Shown here: in pieces, positions 4,408-20,875 of the stretch | Layout of the letters: each line of letters begins with the position of its first letter | Position numbering within the stretch: the stretch's first letter is position 1 | Position numbers and translations under genes: made by a program | Notes under the pieces: generated by a model | Told to the model about the DNA's origin: nothing | Databases searched by the model: none | Seen by the model: the letters and a program-made list of their open reading frames with translations, nothing else | Assembly: GCA_027064565.1 (NCBI GenBank) | Contig: JAMOPK010000364.1 | Location: 1-30,430, forward strand | Direction: 5' to 3' | Length of the DNA: 30,430 bases | From: a candidate division WOR-3 bacterium | GTDB taxonomy: Bacteria; Hydrothermota; Hydrothermia; B15-G9

Positions 4408-5606
4408 TCAGTCTGGATCGTGCCTGCCAGACCGAATATAGGCAGGTAAAGCGCTATCAAGATACCTCCTACAAATCCGCCCAGAAAAACAAGCATTACC
4501 GGCTCTATAACGGAAGCCAATGCCTCAACTGCCGCATCAACTTCCTCCTCATAGAAATCAGCAACTTTTTCAAGCATGTCACTCAATTTACCTGTCTGCT
4601 CACCGACGGTGATCAGATGGATGACAAGCGGAGGGAAAATGCCGCTGTCCCTTAGAGGAGCAGCAAGGCTTTTACCCTCGCCTATGTTCTTTCTCGCGTT
4701 AAGTATCGCTTCTTCAATAACTTTGTTTCCGACAACACGAGAAGTGATCTCAAGACTTTCCAGTATAGGGACACCGTTCCTGATGAGGATACTTAGTGTC
4801 CTCGAGAATCTTGTAAGAGCTGTTTTCAACACCAGAGATCCCACAATAGGGATTTTAAGCAATAATTTATCCCACTTGTAACGTATCGATGGGATTTTCA
4901 AAAGCCTTTTTATCAAAATGATGAAGCCGACTATTCCGCCGATTATGTAAAGAAGGTTCTTTTGCATGAACTGACTGACATTAAGGAGGAGCTGGGTCGG
5001 CCCGGGCAATTCGCTGCCCACATCGGCATAAAGGGATGCAAAGGTGGGAACAAGTTTAACCAGCATGAGGATAACAACACCAATCGTCACAATGAGCACC
5101 ACCATCGGATAGGCCATTGCTGATTTCACCTTCCCCTGCAACGCCGTGATCTTTTCGTAGTATTCGGCTACACGTGTGAGGGTTGAGGCAAGTGAACCGC
5201 CTGTCTCACCCACATCGACCATGCTGATGAAGAAATCGCCAAACATTTTATGATGTTTTCTGAGCGCATCACCGAGGGTTTTACCGCCTTCCACTTCTCT
5301 TTTCACATCAGTAAGTGCTTCTCTCAACTTGTCCTTTGTTGCCTGCTCGGCAAGGATACCGAGCGCCTGAACCGCCGGGATACCAGCATTTATCATAGTA
5401 GCAAACTGACGGCTTATAAGAGCGAGGTCCTTGGCAGTAACCCGCTGGAAGAAAGAAAAGGATAATCCTCCTTTTGTCTCATTGATCGTCTCAATGATGA
5501 TACCCCGATCCCTGAGTCGTTTAACAGCTTCTTCGAGGCTCTTAGCCCTAATTTTACCACTTACCGGCCGCCGATTCATGCGGCCAGTCCATGCAAAAGT
5601 AGGCAT
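4404..5606 (-). CDS. pilC: Type IV pilus inner-membrane platform protein (T2SS-F family)
   Basis: 400 aa; RQFATMINAGIP, GETGGSL, KVKSAMAYP, GEQTGKLSDML, EPVMLVFLG, LYLPIF motifs. Confidence 0.95.
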   Translation of the reverse strand: MPTFAWTGRMNRRPVSGKIRAKSLEEAVKRLRDRGIIIETINETKGGLSFSFFQRVTAKDLALISRQFATMINAGIPAVQALGILAEQATKDKLREALTDVKREVEGGKTLGDALRKHHKMFGDFFISMVDVGETGGSLASTLTRVAEYYEKITALQGKVKSAMAYPMVVLIVTIGVVILMLVKLVPTFASLYADVGSELPGPTQLLLNVSQFMQKNLLYIIGGIVGFIILIKRLLKIPSIRYKWDKLLLKIPIVGSLVLKTALTRFSRTLSILIRNGVPILESLEITSRVVGNKVIEEAILNARKNIGEGKSLAAPLRDSGIFPPLVIHLITVGEQTGKLSDMLEKVADFYEEEVDAAVEALASVIEPVMLVFLGGFVGGILIALYLPIFGLAGTIQTE

Positions 5607-5632
5607 CTATCAACACCCCCATGAAATTTAGT

Positions 5633-6712
5633 TTACGCGAATATCAAGCCTGATTCCCTTCCCATGCGTTTTAGCTCTTCAGGATTCGGGGAGGCCAGCA
5701 TGGCCGTCTGCCACGATATCAAATTTTTCTTGACAAGTTCGAGGAGAGACATGTTCATCGTCTTCATGCCATACCTCTGGCTCGTCTGGATAACGCCGTA
5801 GATCTCATGCAAGCGGGCTTCACGGATAAGAGTTCTGATAGCCGGCGTGGCGATCATTATCTCCGTTGCAAGTGCAAGGCCTTTGCCGCTTGCTCTCGGC
5901 AGAAGCCTTTGAGCTATAACCGCTTCTAAGACCTGAGCGAGCTGTGTTCTGACCTGCGATTGTTGATGGGCGGGGAAAACATCGATGATCCTGTTGACCG
6001 ATTCAATGGCCGAATAGGTGTGCAAGGTCGCAAAGACGAGGTGACCAGTCTCTGCAGCTGTCAGGGCAAGGGCAATTGTTTCTTTGTCGCGCATCTCACC
6101 CACCATGATGACATCAGGGTCCTGACGCAGAGCATATTTCAATGCATTGGCAAAGGATTTTGTGTCCTGGTCAATCTCACGTTGCGAGATTATTGACAGT
6201 CTCGGCTGATACACGTATTCGATCGGGTCTTCCACGGTCAGGATGTGTTCTGCGCGTTCGTTGTTTATTTTGTTTATGAGGGAAGCGAGAGTAGTGGATT
6301 TACCGCTACCCGTCGGCCCCGTAACAAGAACGAGGCCCTGTGATTTCTGGGTCAGTCCTGCGACTACCGGTGGGAGTCCGAGAGCTTCAGGAGTGGGGAT
6401 TCTGACCGGAATCCTTCGTATAGCCGCTGCTACAGTTCCCTGCTGCCAGTAGGCATTTGCCCTGAAACGGCTCAGTCCGGCAATCGAGATTGCAAAGTCG
6501 AGTTCCATTTCGTTTTCAAACCTGAGTTTCTGTTGGTCATTCAAAACGCTATAGATTAACATTCTGGTTTCTGCTGCTGTAAGTGGTTCTGTCCCAAGCG
6601 GAGTCAGTTTTTTATCAATACGCAAATACGGGGGTATCCCTGCTATGATGTGCAGATCCGTTGCCCTCTGTTCAACGGTTATCCTCAAAAGTTGTTCCAT
6701 TGTGTATCCCAT
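5633..6712 (-). CDS. pilT: Type IV pilus retraction ATPase
   Basis: 359 aa; Walker A GPTGSGKSTT, TVEDPIEY, LRQDPDVIMVGEMRD, AETGHLVFATLHT, AIRTLIRE (AIRNLIRE variant). Confidence 0.95.
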   Translation of the reverse strand: MGYTMEQLLRITVEQRATDLHIIAGIPPYLRIDKKLTPLGTEPLTAAETRMLIYSVLNDQQKLRFENEMELDFAISIAGLSRFRANAYWQQGTVAAAIRRIPVRIPTPEALGLPPVVAGLTQKSQGLVLVTGPTGSGKSTTLASLINKINNERAEHILTVEDPIEYVYQPRLSIISQREIDQDTKSFANALKYALRQDPDVIMVGEMRDKETIALALTAAETGHLVFATLHTYSAIESVNRIIDVFPAHQQSQVRTQLAQVLEAVIAQRLLPRASGKGLALATEIMIATPAIRTLIREARLHEIYGVIQTSQRYGMKTMNMSLLELVKKNLISWQTAMLASPNPEELKRMGRESGLIFA

Positions 6713-13297: not shown

Positions 13298-13326
13298 TTG
13301 AAACGTTGGTCATATACCATTAGAAT
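13298..13326 (+). promoter_or_regulatory. Sigma-70-type promoter for the fibre operon
   Basis: TTGAAA (13298-13303), 17 nt, TAGAAT (13321-13326); GGGAGG RBS before ATG 13454. Confidence 0.7.
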
Positions 13327-13453
13327 GTCGGGTTGAAAAGGCTCATGCTGCCTGAGGATCTCATGGGGTGGTTGGAGGAAGCACCCGCCTTTGTGATTCC
13401 CCGGTAGTGTGTGATTGGAATTGAGTGCGACCAAAACAAGGGGAGGTTAAATT

Positions 13454-16400
13454 ATGTTATGGTTGGTTCTAATATCAACGCTGGGGTTTAATTCCATAAC
13501 CCCGGGGATGGCTATTGAGCGGGAGATAGGCCGTTCATCCAACAAAAATGTCCCGTATCACATCAACTATCAGGGATTCCTGACATCCGGTGGCTCAGTG
13601 GTAAACGACACTTTGCAGATGGTTTTCAGGATATTTGGTAGTTCGACCGGAGGCAGTCCGTTGTGGGAGAGCCATGCAATGAACGTTGTGGTTAGGGATG
13701 GCGTTTTCGATGTGGTTCTCGGTTCGGCTGTTCCGATACCGCCGGACGTGTTCAATGGCGATGTGAGGTGGCTTGAGATCGAGATCGAAGGCACGGTTAT
13801 GAGTCCGAGGCAGGAGCTGGGTAGCGTTGGCTACAGTGTCAGGTCCGTTTTCGCTGATACGACGGCCTTTGCCGTTTCCAGTGGACATGCCGACTCGGCA
13901 CGCAGGGCGAGGTTCTCCGACCATGCCGCTCTTGCCGATCAAGCTGACACTGCCGCCTTTGCGGCGGAGGCCGGTCACGCCACGACGGCTGACACCGCGC
14001 TTTTCGCCCACGTGGACTCAGTCGATTATGCCCTTGAATCTCATCATGCCATATTGTCAGATTCGGCTGGATATGCCCTCTTATCCGGGCACGCCACAGT
14101 CTCTGACTCGTCTGTCCACGCCCAGCAAGCTTATCATGCTGTGAGTTCTGATACGGCGAGTTTCGCCATGGCTTCTGCCCATGCATCCGTGGCCGACACA
14201 GCGATGTTTGTCGCCGTGGACTCGGTGAACTATGCCGTCACAGCCGGTCACGCAACAGCTGCAGATTCAGCCGGTTTCGCAGCCAATTCGGGTCATGCGC
14301 TCGTGGCCGACAGCGCCCTGCACGTCTCGGTTGATTCGGTTCGACATGCCGTGACGTCTGACTCGGCGGATTATGCCGTCAACTCCGGGCACGCCGTTGT
14401 TGCGGATTCCGTAATCCATTCCGTCAACCACGTCTCACGTGCAGACACAGCGGATTATGCGGACTACGCCCGACATGCCGGTGTTGCCGATAGCATTGCG
14501 GATTTCTCCGTTGACACAGTTCAGCATGCGATTACAGCCGATTCCGCGGACTACGCCGTGGCAGCAGGTTCAGCTGACTACGCACAGCATGCTGGTGTCG
14601 CAGACAGCGTAAGTAATTTGTCCGTTGATTCGGTTCAGCATGCGGTGACGTCCGACTCGGCTAATTATGCTGTGGCAGCGGGTTCAGCCGACGAAGCGAA
14701 CCATGCGACGGATGCCGACACTGCCCAGTATGCGTTTTCAGCAGGACATGCAGATTTTGCCGACAGTTCTGTTGTTTCCGACTCGGCCGATTTCGCCCAT
14801 CATGCCGCCATGTCCGACAGCGCACTGAGGGCCGACTCCGCAGACTTTGCGGCTTCGTCCCACAACGCAGTTTATGCTGATACAGCGCTTTACGCACACA
14901 TCGATTCCGTAAATTACGCCTCGTCCGCAAATAATGCTAATTATGCAACTCATTCGGACACATCGAATTATGCTTTTTCGGCCGGATATACGCCGGTTAG
15001 CGACACGGCCAATTATGCCTCGTCGGCGGGCAATGCCTCAACAGCGGATTACGCCGCTCGATCTGATACCAGCGCCTATGCGGAAAGTGCAAACAATGCT
15101 ACCACTGCCGATACTGCACAGTTCGCTTATTATTCTGCTCACGCAGCTTATGCCGATTCCAGTTTGACGGCGCTGTGGAGGACTGATGGAATGGTGCTTT
15201 ACCCGAAAAGCGGCTACGGCATATCTATCGATACCGAAAACGTGTATTACGGAAATTTTGCTTACACTCATGTCAATCTGGGATTCCATTCCTTCACTGG
15301 ATATTCCGATACCACAAAATACGCCAGCGTTCTGGGTGGTTATCGCAACTGGGCCGAAGCCACATACTCTGTCGTAGGCGGCGGTCTCCACAATGCGGCT
15401 GTTAAAGAATTTTCCGCGGTTATGAGCGGTGATTCTAATTCTGCGGGGGGTAAATACTCTTTTATCGGTGGCGGTGCGCAGAACTATGCACTGAGCAATT
15501 ACGCGGTTATTGTAGGAGGCAGGGATAATGACGCAAATTACGAGAAAGCCGTTGTTGTAGGAGGTAGCTCCAATTCGGCATACGGAGTTAGCGCGTCAGT
15601 GGTTGGCGGAGATTCCAACCTCGCCAGCGGCTCCTACTCTTTCGTAGGCGGCGGGCAATACGATACCGTAGGTTCATTTGCTGGATTCATCGGTGGAGGC
15701 GTGAACAACAGAGTTGCGTCATCCTACAGCGGCATAGCTTCGGGTTATAGCAACTATGTAACTGGTTCCATATCGTTCGTTGGTGGTGGCGCGAAGGATA
15801 CTGCATCTGGAGCATATTCCGCGGTGCTTGGCGGTTATAAGAATGTTGCAAGTGGGTTTGCCAGCCTTGTTGTTGGAGGCTATATAAACAGCGCTTCCGG
15901 TGACCGCGCGGTTGTGGTTGGAGGTTACAACAATGAGGCAAACACCATTTATTCCACTGTCGTAGGAGGATCCGACAACGCAGCGGCTGATTCATTCTCT
16001 TTCATCGGAGGCGGAAGATTTAACATAACAGGCAAATATGCAGTAGTTACAGGAGGGTATAAAGATACGGCATCAGGAGAATATTCCTTCATCGGAAACG
16101 GTTACAGAAACAATGCCTCTGGATATAGTTCAATCGTAGTTGGCGGTTATTTGAACGATGTCGGAGGAAAATATGGATTTATTGGGGGCGGCTGGTATAA
16201 CGAAGCATCCGCCTATACCAGCGTCGTGCTGGACGGCTACTGGAATGAGTCATCGGATTCATTTGCCACTGTCATCAACGGAATGTCCAACTCGGCAAGC
16301 GGCCATTATTCTTTTGTTGCTAATGGAAAATACAACATCGCCGACGGCGACTTTACTTTTATTTTTGGATATTACGCCAGAACCCAGGGCTATGACAGTG

Positions 16401-16819
16401 TTGCCGTGTTTAACTGGGGGAGCGGGCAAGGCCACTTTTTCATAGGAAACAACGCTTTTTCGACCAGCCATCGCCTTTACGTCAATGGAACCATCTATTC
16501 TTCAAAGGGCATCTACCAGAAGGCCCCATCGGGGAAGGCGCTGGAGACCAAAATTGACGATGCCATGGGTAGAGTCAGCCGTCTGAACGGCGTCTTTTAT
16601 TCCGATGATGGAGAGGATGACGTTGGCCTGAACGCCGATGAGGTCGCTCAGGTGGTGCCTCAGGCCGTGGCCTATTCCCCTGAGGGAGAGGTCGAAGGCG
16701 TGGATTATTCCAAACTCGTTCCCGTGCTTATCGAAGCGATCAAGGCTCAACAGAAAGAGATCGATCAGCTGAAGGCCCGGGTGCAGGAGCTGGAAAAAGC
16801 ACGGGATGGGCAGAGATGA
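13454..16819 (+). CDS. Secreted tail-fibre-like protein: N-terminal beta domain, Ala/Ser-X-X shaft, 15-aa beta-roll repeats, C-terminal S74-type intramolecular chaperone
   Basis: 1121 aa; short hydrophobic N-terminus; INYQGFLT...RIFGSSTGGSPLWE...DGVFDVVLG module; repeats as listed separately; C-terminus LNGVFY...VGLNADEVAQVVPQAV...VDYSKLVPVLIEAIKAQQKEIDQLK is typical of the endosialidase chaperone domain. Confidence 0.85.
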   Translation: MLWLVLISTLGFNSITPGMAIEREIGRSSNKNVPYHINYQGFLTSGGSVVNDTLQMVFRIFGSSTGGSPLWESHAMNVVVRDGVFDVVLGSAVPIPPDVFNGDVRWLEIEIEGTVMSPRQELGSVGYSVRSVFADTTAFAVSSGHADSARRARFSDHAALADQADTAAFAAEAGHATTADTALFAHVDSVDYALESHHAILSDSAGYALLSGHATVSDSSVHAQQAYHAVSSDTASFAMASAHASVADTAMFVAVDSVNYAVTAGHATAADSAGFAANSGHALVADSALHVSVDSVRHAVTSDSADYAVNSGHAVVADSVIHSVNHVSRADTADYADYARHAGVADSIADFSVDTVQHAITADSADYAVAAGSADYAQHAGVADSVSNLSVDSVQHAVTSDSANYAVAAGSADEANHATDADTAQYAFSAGHADFADSSVVSDSADFAHHAAMSDSALRADSADFAASSHNAVYADTALYAHIDSVNYASSANNANYATHSDTSNYAFSAGYTPVSDTANYASSAGNASTADYAARSDTSAYAESANNATTADTAQFAYYSAHAAYADSSLTALWRTDGMVLYPKSGYGISIDTENVYYGNFAYTHVNLGFHSFTGYSDTTKYASVLGGYRNWAEATYSVVGGGLHNAAVKEFSAVMSGDSNSAGGKYSFIGGGAQNYALSNYAVIVGGRDNDANYEKAVVVGGSSNSAYGVSASVVGGDSNLASGSYSFVGGGQYDTVGSFAGFIGGGVNNRVASSYSGIASGYSNYVTGSISFVGGGAKDTASGAYSAVLGGYKNVASGFASLVVGGYINSASGDRAVVVGGYNNEANTIYSTVVGGSDNAAADSFSFIGGGRFNITGKYAVVTGGYKDTASGEYSFIGNGYRNNASGYSSIVVGGYLNDVGGKYGFIGGGWYNEASAYTSVVLDGYWNESSDSFATVINGMSNSASGHYSFVANGKYNIADGDFTFIFGYYARTQGYDSVAVFNWGSGQGHFFIGNNAFSTSHRLYVNGTIYSSKGIYQKAPSGKALETKIDDAMGRVSRLNGVFYSDDGEDDVGLNADEVAQVVPQAVAYSPEGEVEGVDYSKLVPVLIEAIKAQQKEIDQLKARVQELEKARDGQR
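13853..15163 (+). repeat. About 437-aa (Ala/Ser-X-X)n coding repeat with six V/I-D-S/T-V-x-Y/H nodes
   Basis: For example ANH-ATD-ADT-AQY-AFS-AGH-ADF-ADS-SVV-SDS-ADF-AHH; nodes HVDSVDY, AVDSVNY, SVDSVRH, SVDTVQH, SVDSVQH, HIDSVNY. Confidence 0.9.
14459..14686 (+). repeat. Imperfect tandem duplication, 2 x 114 bp (38 aa)
   Basis: ADYARHAGVADSIADFSVDTVQHAITADSADYAVAAGS (14459-14572) then ADYAQHAGVADSVSNLSVDSVQHAVTSDSANYAVAAGS (14573-14686). Confidence 0.85.
15320..16351 (+). repeat. 23 tandem 15-aa repeats (one of 14 aa), consensus (Y/F)S-hyd-hyd-G-G-G-x-x-N-x-A-S-G-x
   Basis: Split by hand from YASVLGGYRNWAEAT to YSFVANGKYNIADGD; 344 codons = 23x15-1; resembles the beta-roll head repeats of trimeric adhesins/fibres. 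Confidence 0.9.
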
Positions 16820-17349
16820 GACGGTTACTCCCTCTCATCCTGACATTGATTTTGCCGGCTGTTGTTTTTGCTCAGTCGAACTATGAGCTCAGGGCCGGCC
16901 AGATTTCCATGGGGGGCGGCAGCGCCGCCTCACAGAACTACACCCTGAAAAGCGTCTCAGGGCTTTCTGTCACAGGCAGAAGCTCAGGTGGAGCCTTCAC
17001 TCTGACATCAGGAATGCCTTACGGGAGCATAACTTTCGGCATCGAGGAATCCCCCATCGAGCGTCCGCCCGCCATCTTCAAGCTCTATCCAATGGCGCCT
17101 AATCCATTCAGAAACCACACAAGGATAATTTTCTCGATCCCGTCGAAAACCGACGTTGCTATCTCGGTTTACGATGTTTCCGGCCGATTGGTCTGGAGCG
17201 TGTTCATGGATGACGTCGAGCCGGGACAGCACTCCGTCGGATGGAACGGGACTGACGTCAACGGTCACCATCTGCCCGGAGGCATGTATATCCTCAGATT
17301 TCGGGCGGGTGAATTCGACGAGGTCAGGAAGTTCCTGATTTTGAGGTGA
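16816..17349 (+). CDS. Small secreted protein with C-terminal T9SS type-A / FlgD-Ig-like sorting domain
   Basis: 177 aa; signal peptide ending AVVFA; about 55-aa Ser/Gly-rich segment with repeated SxNYxL; then LYPMAPNPF...ISVYDVSGRLV...WNGTD...LPGGMYILR...RKFLILR. ATGA overlap with the fibre stop. Confidence 0.85.
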   Translation: MRRLLPLILTLILPAVVFAQSNYELRAGQISMGGGSAASQNYTLKSVSGLSVTGRSSGGAFTLTSGMPYGSITFGIEESPIERPPAIFKLYPMAPNPFRNHTRIIFSIPSKTDVAISVYDVSGRLVWSVFMDDVEPGQHSVGWNGTDVNGHHLPGGMYILRFRAGEFDEVRKFLILR

Positions 17350-17356
17350 AAACATC

Positions 17357-17381
17357 GGGCGGCGGCCGAAGGCCGCCGCCC
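17357..17381. terminator. GC-rich hairpin just downstream of the fibre operon
   Basis: GGGCGGCGGCC-gaa-GGCCGCCGCCC perfect 11-bp stem, 8 bp after the stop; no U-tract. Confidence 0.6.
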
Positions 17382-17498
17382 ATCCCCATGCTGAAATTTC
17401 CATCCGCTTTAGCTCTCTGCCGGAACCCATTTCCCCTGACCCAGGAATAATGTCTACCTCTTGTCGAGTTTGGCATGGCTTTCAGGGTAAAAGCAGAT

Positions 17499-17614: not shown

Positions 17615-20600
17615 CTATCTCAAGTGCAACACCTTCCTTGTAATAAGCGAGTTCCGGCCACGGCCGACGACGAAATAGATTCCGCCCGGCAATGAGTTCA
17701 CGGAGATAGTTGTCTTGCCCGACATTCCGCTGACCGTTTTGCTCAGAATCAGCCTGCCGGTCACATCGAAAAGCTGCAGCTCGTTCAGAGCGCCGTTCCA
17801 TCTCACATCCAACAGGTCCCCTCTTTGCGTGACCCATAACTTGCCATGATGCGCCGGGTTTTCGACATAGCCCGGTTCGGATATGCCCGTCGAATTCCAT
17901 GTAGATGTCAGCGTTACGTCGTCGATATACCAGCCTTCTAACTGAACCTCATTGTCCTCGCTATAAAACGCCATTGTCAACTGGATCTCCGTTCCGGGCC
18001 TCAGCCCTGTCAGCGGGATGTCAAACTGTTTCCATGTGGTGGATTGACCGTCCAGACTTGCAACGAACCGATAATCCGTGTCTCCGTTCACTTTATACCT
18101 CACGATCCCGAAATCCCAGCCCGCCTGAGTCTCGAAATACGTCCAGAATTTGAGGTGCGGATTGATCCCGACGAGCATCCAGGGCGATGTGATGGAGGCC
18201 ATGACGTTTGGAGGATACTGCCACGAACCCTCGTTCCCGAAATAAAGGCTTTGCTGGCCGCTGTGGCTCCTGTGGGCTGTCAGGTGCCATGGAGACTCGA
18301 CGGTCCATCCCTGGACCCCATCCTCAAAATCAAAGCTGTAGCCCACATAGCCGCTGGACAACCACAGGGTATCACTGAACGGCTCAAGCCTGAACATGGC
18401 AAAGTTGGAGCCGCAGGCGACGGTGTCCAACTGAAAGCTCAGGTCGATGGTAGTGGAATCGCCCGGCGCAATCGAACCCACCTGCAGGGAATCGTCCGGG
18501 AACGACAGACCTGCTGAGATCGGGATCGGATGGAGCCACAGGTCGCTGACTTCCGCTGCGCCGGTGTTGACCACGCGCAGCCGCGCGGTGCTGTAAGGCG
18601 TGCCATCGGAAATCGAGGCGATGGAGAAGGAAAGCCTGAATCCGAACACCGTTATCGGTTGTTCCATTGTGTCCGCCGGGAGGTTGGCGCCTGAGATGAC
18701 CAGTCGAACGTGGGAGTTGCAGGTCGAATCGCCGGCGTGGATGGTGGTGCTGACCACGAATGTGTCGCTGACTCCGAAAGAAGGCGTTGTGAATCGGCTG
18801 CTGTCAAGGGAAAGACACGGCCCGGCCGTGATCGCGAGAGAGAAGTCCTGCACCGGTTCACCGCTTCGATTGACTAATTTGACCGTGAAAGGCGACGATT
18901 CGCCGAAGGACATCACCCCATCATCGCCGCCGTAGGTGATTTCAACCAGTTGAATGTTAGAAGATTGAACCGTGACGGTATCGTCATGAAAAACATAGCC
19001 GTCCTTCCAGACCGCAACCTCGATCCAGCCCGATGCAGCTTCAAATTCGAGGTAGCAGGTGCCGTCCGGGCCGGTGACTCCACGCGTAAGCACTGAATCG
19101 TTCTGAAAAACCGTGACACGTGCATCGGGAATCGGCTCGCCGGTGGGAGCCGTCACCGTAACCGCTAGATTGTTCCGTCCGCTTACCGGCCGGCCGCTCA
19201 TGGAGACCTCCATCTGCTGGAGTTCGGCCGTAGGAAGATAGAGGTCAGGGTCTCCTAACAGGTTAACGGCGTATTCGCTCCATCTGAACGTGTTGGCGCC
19301 ATCGGCCTGAGGCGCATAGAGCGCTTTGACGCTGGCCAGCGCAACGCCTAACTGCTGCAACCGATTCCTCACAACCTGATGGAAAAACTCGATGTCCATC
19401 CTGTCGGTCGAGCTGTAACCCATGAACTGCGGGATATACCACCCGTATCGGCTGTTTCCTATGAAAAATCCGCCGCCGTTCGGCGCCTTGACGAACCGCT
19501 CCGCGATGCAATCATAGTCGAAGGATGCCACCCAGCAGCCGATGGAATAGAATACTCCGACGTATTTCGGGGCATTGGTCAGCTCGTTGAAGGCATCCAT
19601 GTAGATGTAATCCGGCCCGGCCTGCATCATCCATGTGTTGCCATGGCCTTCATGGTTGACGAAGTTGTAGCCGTAGTTCAGGAAGCCTATGAGGCTGTTG
19701 GCCGTCAGATTGCCGAACCGCTCGTAAAGCTTCATAACGCTGACCTCAGGTTCCACTTCAGCGGCGATCATGTCCTTGAGCACGCCTCCGTCGTTGGATT
19801 CGTCGAGATAACTTGCGGCGAAAAGCGCTGTGCCGGAATAGTTCGGTGCGTGCTGGCTTTCATAGGCGATCACCTTGTTGACAAACACGGAAACTTCCTG
19901 AGAGGTTGAGACCGGTGCCCTGCCGACGAAAACGTCCGGGAGCATGTCGACACTGTCGTCAACTTCCCCGAAAACATTGTTGCCGTTGGCATCCCATGTG
20001 CCGTCGAGGTCGGAAAAGTAGAGGTCAGTCGGGATAGTGTCGCCTTCCTGAGGTGTTGGCTCGGAATTCACGGCGAAAGCCTTTCTGTAAGGCAGGACGT
20101 CGGTGTCGCCGCCGAGCAGCACATAGACAAGGCCTGAATCCAGCGCTGTTTTCAGGTAGTTCCTGAGGGCCTCGGCATCGTCCCTGCCCGAATAGTTGCT
20201 CCTTATCCATTCGATTGTCCTGAGCGCAACCCTGTGCCCTTTTCTGGTCTTCCACCTGATCAGCGGCTGCCAGGCCGGGGCAAGATTCCCGGAAGTGATT
20301 ATCAAGTAGTCAAAACCCGTGGTTTTCGGTGCTGTCCTGACGAGGAGCTCGCCGTTGGCAACGATTCGCTTGAGAAAAGCCAATCTTGAGGCCGGCACAT
20401 TTACGGGAGCCGTTTCCCATTCGATCTCGATTTTCCGGTTGAAGATGATCCGTTTCCCGACCGGGTCGAACTGAACCGGGTAGAGCTTTATCGCAGCCAC
20501 CCTGACGTCTGCGATACGACCGGGTTTGATCGAGTAAGGTTCTGAGGGATAGAGGCTTCCGCTGTTATAAATCTTCGGGTCAGGTGGCGAAAACTCCAGT

Positions 20601-20875
20601 TTCCCTTCTCTGTCGGTTGGCAGTGGGATCGGCGATGGAGAAACATATACGTTTTCCATAGTGTCAGCCGCTAAGATTCTGATTTTGGGAAATTTCCCGT
20701 TTTCCGGAAGCGCCACTAACAGGTTTTTGACCGGGAGCCATGGCCTGCCGTATTCGGTTTGCATAGGGAGGTCTTCGACAAAGGGGATGGTTCCTCCCCC
20801 CGATTTTTTCAGGTCAGGTGCCTGAAATTCCAGTGTGAAGGCATATAGAGATGCAATTATCAGAAAGTTCATCAT
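17615..20875 (-). CDS. Gingipain-like C25 cysteine peptidase with propeptide, Ig-like domains, adhesin-like beta-sandwich and T9SS-A-like C-terminal domain
   Basis: 1086 aa; DYLIIT, WKTRKGH, YVLLGGDTDVLP, TDLYFSDLDGTWD, DVFVGRAP, catalytic NHEGHG and SIGC, NLLGDP; late FDFEDGVQGW...SITSP...GWYIDDV domain; tail LFDVTGRLI...LPGGIYFV...RKVLHLR. Confidence 0.92.
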   Translation of the reverse strand: MMNFLIIASLYAFTLEFQAPDLKKSGGGTIPFVEDLPMQTEYGRPWLPVKNLLVALPENGKFPKIRILAADTMENVYVSPSPIPLPTDREGKLEFSPPDPKIYNSGSLYPSEPYSIKPGRIADVRVAAIKLYPVQFDPVGKRIIFNRKIEIEWETAPVNVPASRLAFLKRIVANGELLVRTAPKTTGFDYLIITSGNLAPAWQPLIRWKTRKGHRVALRTIEWIRSNYSGRDDAEALRNYLKTALDSGLVYVLLGGDTDVLPYRKAFAVNSEPTPQEGDTIPTDLYFSDLDGTWDANGNNVFGEVDDSVDMLPDVFVGRAPVSTSQEVSVFVNKVIAYESQHAPNYSGTALFAASYLDESNDGGVLKDMIAAEVEPEVSVMKLYERFGNLTANSLIGFLNYGYNFVNHEGHGNTWMMQAGPDYIYMDAFNELTNAPKYVGVFYSIGCWVASFDYDCIAERFVKAPNGGGFFIGNSRYGWYIPQFMGYSSTDRMDIEFFHQVVRNRLQQLGVALASVKALYAPQADGANTFRWSEYAVNLLGDPDLYLPTAELQQMEVSMSGRPVSGRNNLAVTVTAPTGEPIPDARVTVFQNDSVLTRGVTGPDGTCYLEFEAASGWIEVAVWKDGYVFHDDTVTVQSSNIQLVEITYGGDDGVMSFGESSPFTVKLVNRSGEPVQDFSLAITAGPCLSLDSSRFTTPSFGVSDTFVVSTTIHAGDSTCNSHVRLVISGANLPADTMEQPITVFGFRLSFSIASISDGTPYSTARLRVVNTGAAEVSDLWLHPIPISAGLSFPDDSLQVGSIAPGDSTTIDLSFQLDTVACGSNFAMFRLEPFSDTLWLSSGYVGYSFDFEDGVQGWTVESPWHLTAHRSHSGQQSLYFGNEGSWQYPPNVMASITSPWMLVGINPHLKFWTYFETQAGWDFGIVRYKVNGDTDYRFVASLDGQSTTWKQFDIPLTGLRPGTEIQLTMAFYSEDNEVQLEGWYIDDVTLTSTWNSTGISEPGYVENPAHHGKLWVTQRGDLLDVRWNGALNELQLFDVTGRLILSKTVSGMSGKTTISVNSLPGGIYFVVGRGRNSLITRKVLHLR

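Follow-up and report, generated by a model that had tools for sequence, protein, structure and literature searches.

A co-encoded small protein with a type IX sorting domain as a candidate 3:1 adaptor for a tail-fibre-like protein in a candidate division WOR-3 bacterium

The mosaic adhesive trimer (MAT) fibres of Bdellovibrio bacteriovorus are the closest described relatives, by architecture, of the system presented here. All 21 MATs have an N-terminal beta-rich domain without solved homologues, which was placed next to the cell surface and "would presumably tightly bind a surface element", the nature of which "awaits further study" (Caulton et al., 2024, PMC10769870). The present analysis concerns a stretch of 30,430 nucleotides (nt) from a candidate division WOR-3 bacterium (positions 1 to 30,430 of contig JAMOPK010000364.1, GenBank assembly GCA_027064565.1), hereafter called the window at this full length. 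In the window, an open reading frame (ORF) for a fibre protein of 1121 amino acids (aa) (P0001; 13454-16819, + strand) is followed by an ORF for a partner protein of 177 aa (P0002; 16816-17349, + strand). The fibre starts with a conserved domain (N-domain), and the partner combines a short repeat module (N-module) with a type A C-terminal sorting domain (CTD) of the T9SS (type IX secretion system). We propose, on the basis of sequence comparison and structure prediction, that the partner is an adaptor which anchors the MAT-like fibre to the cell surface at a ratio of three fibre chains to one partner, a reading to which we assign a probability of about 0.6.

In layout, the fibre resembles the MATs, with a start that looks like a signal peptide, a conserved beta-rich N-domain (about 130 aa in MATs), a long repeat fibre, and an S74-like chaperone or another tip. 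Both are encoded by chromosomal and not phage genes, and the N-domain of neither has a homologue in the PDB. On the other hand, no partner has been described for MATs, and the present fibre has no SDxxxK motif. The fibre family thus looks MAT-like, a likeness of architecture only that was drawn from the description of the MATs.

The partner, in turn, ends in a type A sorting domain (TIGR04183 / PF18962), as does known T9SS cargo such as the gingipains, and its N-terminus likewise looks like a signal peptide. In known cargo, however, passenger and CTD belong to one chain, whereas here the passenger is a putative binding module of 50 residues and the large protein is a separate chain. A monomer on a trimer, as predicted here, is known from PAAR on VgrG, where a single chain with three internal pseudo-repeats acts by strand complementation, and in the gp37-gp38 tip of S16/T2-type phages (PDB 6f45), where a lone chain likewise caps a trimeric fibre, a 3:1 symmetry mismatch. 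The fibre C-terminus is indeed a sequence relative of the gp37 end, but the partner module has no sequence or family kinship with gp38 or PAAR. Moreover, these proteins cap the distal end, whereas the predicted site of the partner is the N-terminal end, next to the cell, and the partner bears an anchoring tag. A separate protein attaches a large surface protein in cohesin-dockerin anchoring and in T9SS type B CTD cargo with PorP/SprF-type helpers. Dockerin and CHU_C tails occur in the partner family too, but the predicted fibre binder is a distinct triple-repeat module of 50 residues, and the fibre has neither a dockerin nor a CTD.

Judged from sequence, the pairing of the two families is not a matter of chance. 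The first-pass annotation of this DNA had put forward the fibre and its neighbour as a functional pair and had named co-occurrence and adjacency across genomes as a check. The survey agreed with the proposal: among 201 genomes of the phylum, module and N-domain occurred together in 79 and only one of them in 10 (module only in 3, N-domain only in 7), while 112 had neither, and the genes were almost always neighbours where the contigs extend far enough. The module was found in 82 genomes and the N-domain in 86, and 3/3 of the module-only cases are at contig ends. Related genomes are non-independent samples; since the phyletic pattern of the pair is patchy across families, the pairing is nevertheless more than the shared ancestry of one clade.

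Adjacency was observed among close relatives, across the class and in the phylum sample. In seven closely related genomes, 10/10 module matches (the two from the window's own genome included) adjoin a fibre gene or are cut there by the contig end, and in a scan of 40 relatives each module match was directly adjacent to a fibre gene if the contig extended far enough. Most of these partner genes come immediately 3' of the fibre gene and overlap it by 4 nt, the fibre sharing the coiled-coil end; the junctions in relatives show either this same overlap or gaps of a few bases. Class-wide, a partner was present for 15 of the 17 evaluable N-domain genes at first pass, and for one of the two exceptions a partner of 139 aa was found later. 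Distant class members keep the N-domain and have other C-termini, and nearly all of them are then followed by a protein of 140-208 aa with the N-module, whose tail is a dockerin in some (PF00404, E 1e-12) and a T9SS CTD in others. A sample was also drawn from the module side, with one module locus from each of 40 genomes (44 module genes in total). An N-domain gene lay within 500 nt and on the same strand in 30/44, and in a further 7/44 when frameshifts, masked runs of N, a contig-cut fibre or one intervening gene were allowed; 5/44 were at contig ends and not evaluable, and 2/44 stood alone. At one locus of this phylum (L140, G090:C40), a gene for a secreted protein of 535 aa (5034-6638, - strand) lies between the fibre and partner genes.

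The sorting domain was found on all partners of the phylum sample (44/44), while no N-domain protein had a CTD of its own, either in the phylum sample (0/42) or in other phyla (0/63). The partnered fibres vary in stalk and C-terminus, and the N-domain is their sole constant part; because these other regions differ, it is the only constant candidate for a binding site.

The prediction of a complex points to the same domain. Three fibre N-domains (87-row alignment A4) were modeled with one partner N-module (43-row alignment A5), a second check proposed in the first-pass annotation, and the interface score (ipSAE, interaction prediction score from aligned errors) was 0.85 compared to 0.01 for the best of three controls. 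A mark of 0.85 is reached by 58 of 80 solved complexes and by 2 of 110 mismatched pairs. The runs had 91% or more of the contacts in common, and the predicted local distance difference test (pLDDT) of the partner was at least 71. The predicted interface comprises, on the fibre side, residues 37-47 of P0001 (INYQGFLTSGG) and two later strands, in all three copies, and on the partner side residues 21-74, all of which are involved; it is made of the most conserved motif of each family. The pairs with the lowest error join the strand of copy 2 to partner residues 43-48 (repeat 2) and the strand of copy 3 to residues 61-66 (repeat 3). These predicted contacts are beta-strand pairings with the INYQG strand, in accordance with the beta-strand complementation of the fibre N-terminal module that had been suggested beforehand. 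Extrapolated from the contacts of repeats 2 and 3, each repeat would serve one fibre subunit, giving a 3:1 beta-strand augmentation. The model thus supports, and does not by itself show, that the partner binds the base of the fibre.

Beyond the phylum search, an alignment of the N-domain (A3) detected it at 66 loci, in Stahlbacteria, Zixibacteria, Calditrichota, Ignavibacteria, Krumholzibacteria, Omnitrophota, Nitrospirota, Desulfuromonadales, Betaproteobacteria, Dehalococcoidia, Elusimicrobia and others. A module gene was present at 23 of 63 cross-phylum N-domain loci, in 20 of these within 400 nt, the phyla of this pairing sample including Zixibacteria, Calditrichota, Krumholzibacteria, Nitrospirota, Desulfuromonadales, Betaproteobacteria and Dehalococcoidia; two more pairs, from Ignavibacteria, were visible by eye. 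Conversely, at four module-family loci for which DNA was available (metagenomes or other genomes), an N-domain gene was next door in three. The cross-phylum partners end in a CTD or in FN3-like, CARDB or immunoglobulin-like (Ig-like) tails, and the best 150 module proteins of a library of representatives carry Por_Secre_tail (38), Dockerin_1 (36), CHU_C (14) or SLH (1). The T9SS CTD, dockerin, CHU_C and SLH are surface-sorting or anchoring modules. The constant parts of the pair are therefore the fibre N-domain and the partner N-module, and the partner tail is swappable. The first-pass description of the partner as a sorting-domain-only protein holds for the window, where a putative signal peptide, the repeat module and the type A CTD make up the protein; in general, though, it does not, as the conserved part is the 50-residue N-module and the tail may also be a dockerin, CHU_C, SLH or Ig-like domain. 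Because dockerin, CHU_C and SLH variants occur, anchoring is favoured over export as the general role. In one genome with a dockerin-tailed partner (G004), cohesin and T9SS CTD matches were found in the same ORFs (820, 837 and 473 aa; G004:C7:21762-22931, G004:C118:17763-18449 and G004:C80:813-1418). It is possible that these cohesin-CTD proteins are docking sites, themselves anchored by the T9SS, which suggests an indirect route to the same anchor.

The partner of the window begins with MRRLLPLILTLILPAVVFA followed by QS, which by eye has the look of a classical signal peptide (aa 1-19; 16816-16872, + strand), the position of which is conserved in alignments A1 and A7. The N-module follows at aa 20-72 (16873-17031, + strand; alignment A5, 43 sequences) and contains three S.NY.L / F.L.SG pseudo-repeats, in order SNYELRAG, QNYTLKSVSG and AFTLTSG. 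The type A sorting domain (aa 94-177; 17095-17346, + strand) scored above the cut-offs of both families, with TIGR04183 matching aa 94-175 of 177, hence the extreme C-terminus (E 3.5e-10, 39.7 bits; cut-off 23), and PF18962 (Por_Secre_tail) giving E 4.9e-8 and 33.6 bits (cut-off 27); FlgD_ig also matched (36.1 bits; cut-off 27). When the partner was modeled alone with AlphaFold2 (AF2; 56 homologues), the CTD had a pLDDT of at least 94 and the N-module was poorly ordered (39-71).

The module has no family in Pfam, NCBIfam or PHROGs, and our literature search found no published description of the partner family or of trans-acting CTDs. The family was found by six-frame genome searches and profiles, a word-index search with the whole partner having given one relative. 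Of the 1.84 billion representatives in a public library, 9107 were matched by the module profile at E <=1e-3, mostly proteins of 100-250 aa in which the signal peptide leads straight into the module. Some members carry two or three N-modules in tandem (P0004, 1034 aa; P0005, 243 aa; P0009; P0012), and such proteins might bind several fibres at once. Two candidate relationships were dropped. The match to the pilus protein PamT of the candidate phyla radiation (NCBIfam, 17.5 bits; cut-off 240) reflects a signal peptide and Ser/Gly-rich strands only, and a supposed fusion of the SxNYxL-plus-CTD unit to a larger cargo of the same genome (C168) proved to be a 614-aa ORF with a CTD match only.

The fibre has a hydrophobic, signal-peptide-like N-terminus by inspection (about aa 1-20; 13454-13513, + strand), and all its homologues begin with such a hydrophobic stretch, followed by the conserved domain. 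This "base" domain (about aa 31-130; 13544-13843, + strand) is a predicted beta-sandwich bearing the INYQG strand, with an AF2 pLDDT above 90 over about 90 residues; across the 87 sequences of alignment A4, the P, N, Y, Q and G of the INYQG motif region are nearly invariant. It belongs to no family in Pfam, NCBIfam or PHROGs, a Foldseek search against the PDB returned only generic Ig-like/CBM48 sandwiches (best E 0.016), and a scan of viral contigs found no relative. In predicted-structure libraries, the N-domain heads collagen-like, YadA-head, S74 tail-fibre, GLUG, fibrinogen-C and collar proteins. A repeat stalk rich in Ala, Ser, Asp and His was read from the translation at 13853-15163 (+ strand), with units such as ADSADYAxxAGHA. 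It is succeeded by a Gly-rich, beta-solenoid-like repeat region (15252-16423, + strand), with a weak match to LbR_Ice_bind that was below cut-off (E 6.7e-4).

A phage tail-fibre C-terminal domain of the S74/intramolecular-chaperone-like kind and a terminal coiled coil (16541-16816, + strand; PHROGs and profile search) close the fibre. Many phage tail-fibre PHROGs match its last 132 aa with their own C-termini (best E 3.5e-15), and on the whole protein there was no CTD match and no family of Pfam or NCBIfam reached its cut-off, which upholds the first-pass view of a fibre that ends in a chaperone and lacks a sorting tail. A profile of eight such fibre ends matched phage S16 gp37 (6f45_A) at E 2.8e-5 and the MYRF ICA domain at E 0.036, while Pfam S74 (PF13884) was below its cut-off on the fibre end (E 0.042, 14.6 bits; cut-off 22). 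By these profile comparisons, the chaperone end is genuine at the level of the fold family. That it cleaves itself is doubtful: inspection of the eight sequences of alignment A6 (the fibre and its seven closest relatives) revealed no SDxxxK cleavage motif, the chaperone core being preceded by the consensus APSGK(T)..I (fibre end of the window, 16505-16819). As the motif was not seen, the chaperone and coiled coil may stay attached to the fibre.

The fibre and partner genes look like a two-gene operon, given a promoter-like site, a stop/start overlap and a GC-rich hairpin before a convergent gene. The candidate sigma-70-like promoter lies 5' of the fibre gene at 13298-13326 (+ strand; TTGAAA-17-TAGAAT, 10/12 consensus matches, a consensus match only), and a ribosome-binding site GGAGG was read at 13442-13446 (+ strand), 8 nt 5' of the ATG at 13454. 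At the junction (AGA TGA / ATG AGA), the fibre stop and the partner start share four nt at 16816-16819, the ATGA overlap from which translational coupling had been proposed. The hairpin between the partner gene and the convergent gene (17356-17382; 12-bp stem with 11 GC pairs) is likely a terminator. The convergent gene (17615-20875 of the window, - strand) encodes a C25 (gingipain-family) peptidase of 1086 aa with a propeptide, CarboxypepD_reg and MAM-like domains and a T9SS CTD of its own; its match to PorU was weak (55.6 bits). The same genome contains a fibre paralogue with an N-domain 53% identical (C276:3-1493, - strand) and a partner paralogue 48% identical (C204:3-455, + strand), both contig-cut, which suggests a second pair split by the assembly in a repeat region; in C276 it was the stalk-repeat region that broke the assembly.

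In the proposed mechanism, the fibre, composed of a signal-peptide-like start, base domain, repeat stalk and phage-type chaperone end, has no secretion or anchoring tag of its own. The co-translated partner, in which a putative signal peptide precedes a module of three strand repeats and a short linker leads on to the T9SS type A CTD, would supply one. Each fibre trimer is predicted, from sequence comparison and model, to be gripped at its base by a single partner. On the basis of established T9SS biology, export of the partner would proceed through this system via its CTD, in keeping with which the genome has PorU-, PorV- and SprA-like genes and 63 CTD matches; by analogy with known cargo, a PorU-type sortase would cut off the CTD, and a surface glycolipid would be linked to the new C-terminus. 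This would hold the fibre to the cell at its N-terminal end, with the C-terminal head outward. The fibre may cross the outer membrane in complex with the partner, which is possible as the T9SS moves folded proteins, or by another route; export in trans is unproven. Of the first-pass proposal that the partner provides a sorting and anchoring signal in trans, the anchoring part is thus supported by computation, and the export part stays conjectural.

Were export the main role, trimer and partner would assemble in the periplasm and the complex would pass the T9SS translocon via the CTD of the partner. The distribution of CTDs, absent from fibres (0/63, 0/42) and present on all partners of the phylum sample (44/44), is consistent with this, as are the translational coupling of the genes and the predicted binding, and the T9SS carries folded proteins, very large ones included (PMC9251779). 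Partner tails, however, are often a dockerin, an SLH domain or absent, and the literature search found no case of co-transport through the T9SS. Bdellovibrio is not known to have a T9SS. Since it does display MAT fibres (Caulton et al., PMC10769870), fibres of this kind appear able to reach the surface without a CTD in trans. We consider this piggy-back route unlikely, and hold just as tentatively the broader idea that the tag-less trimeric fibre is exported as a pre-assembled 3:1 complex with its CTD adaptor, adaptors with other tails being MAT-type anchors in many phyla.

Two further explanations give the partner no tethering role. It would be an independent small T9SS cargo, in the same operon but with no physical contact to the fibre, if the abundance of small CTD proteins (63 CTD matches in the genome) and the partners that stand alone were taken as guide; yet adjacency and co-occurrence are kept across phyla while partner tail, fibre stalk and head change, and the complex prediction is strongly above its controls, which makes this account very improbable. 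A tip or assembly factor that caps or templates the trimer, like gp38 on phage gp37 or a tail-fibre assembly protein, is very improbable as well. A three-repeat monomer on a trimer does resemble such caps, and the module could aid trimerisation of the N-termini, but the predicted binding is at the N-terminal domain, which is the particle- or cell-proximal end in phage fibres and in the MAT model. In addition, the variable tails of the partner are anchoring modules and not adhesin domains, and the distal ends of the fibres vary while the partner module is constant.

Several points weigh against a surface adaptor of the kind proposed, for which the evidence is computational throughout. The complex prediction used user-made alignments and a layout of 3+1 chains, both of which differ from the calibration of the prediction tool. 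Three partner genes (L136, L165 and L174) are alone, with no N-domain gene within 5-7 kb, and about 38 of the 63 cross-phylum N-domain genes have no adjoining partner. The latter are often in genomes rich in fibre paralogues, where a single adaptor might be enough for several fibres with a common base domain. Every T9SS homologue in the metagenome-assembled genome, which is 86% complete, is below its curated cut-off, namely PorU-like (409.5 bits; cut-off 420), PorV-like (128 bits; cut-off 250) and SprA-like fragments (110 and 99 bits; cut-off 200); a search of this genome for GldM was without match, but it matched no control genome either and is uninformative. Finally, partners with dockerin, SLH or unrecognised tails indicate that the T9SS tag is not required for pairing, and because pairing occurs without it, export in trans is unlikely as the general role.

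It was not until 2024 that adhesins resembling tail fibres were recognised on bacterial cells, and the partner of the MAT base domain was left open (PMC10769870). The small protein described here is a new element on this recently described kind of fibre and a concrete, testable candidate for its anchor. It belongs to a large unnamed family (9107 cluster representatives), in which a conserved module is predicted to grip the fibre base and a surface anchor makes up the tail. The protein is probably what was missing to tie tag-less fibres to the cell. If this is true, it would explain how such fibres are attached in many uncultivated phyla, would extend T9SS cargo recognition or anchoring by a mode that acts in trans, and would offer a small portable handle for the surface display of trimeric proteins. 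Were the fibre also to be exported with its partner, this would be the first example of a protein hitch-hiking through the type IX translocon.

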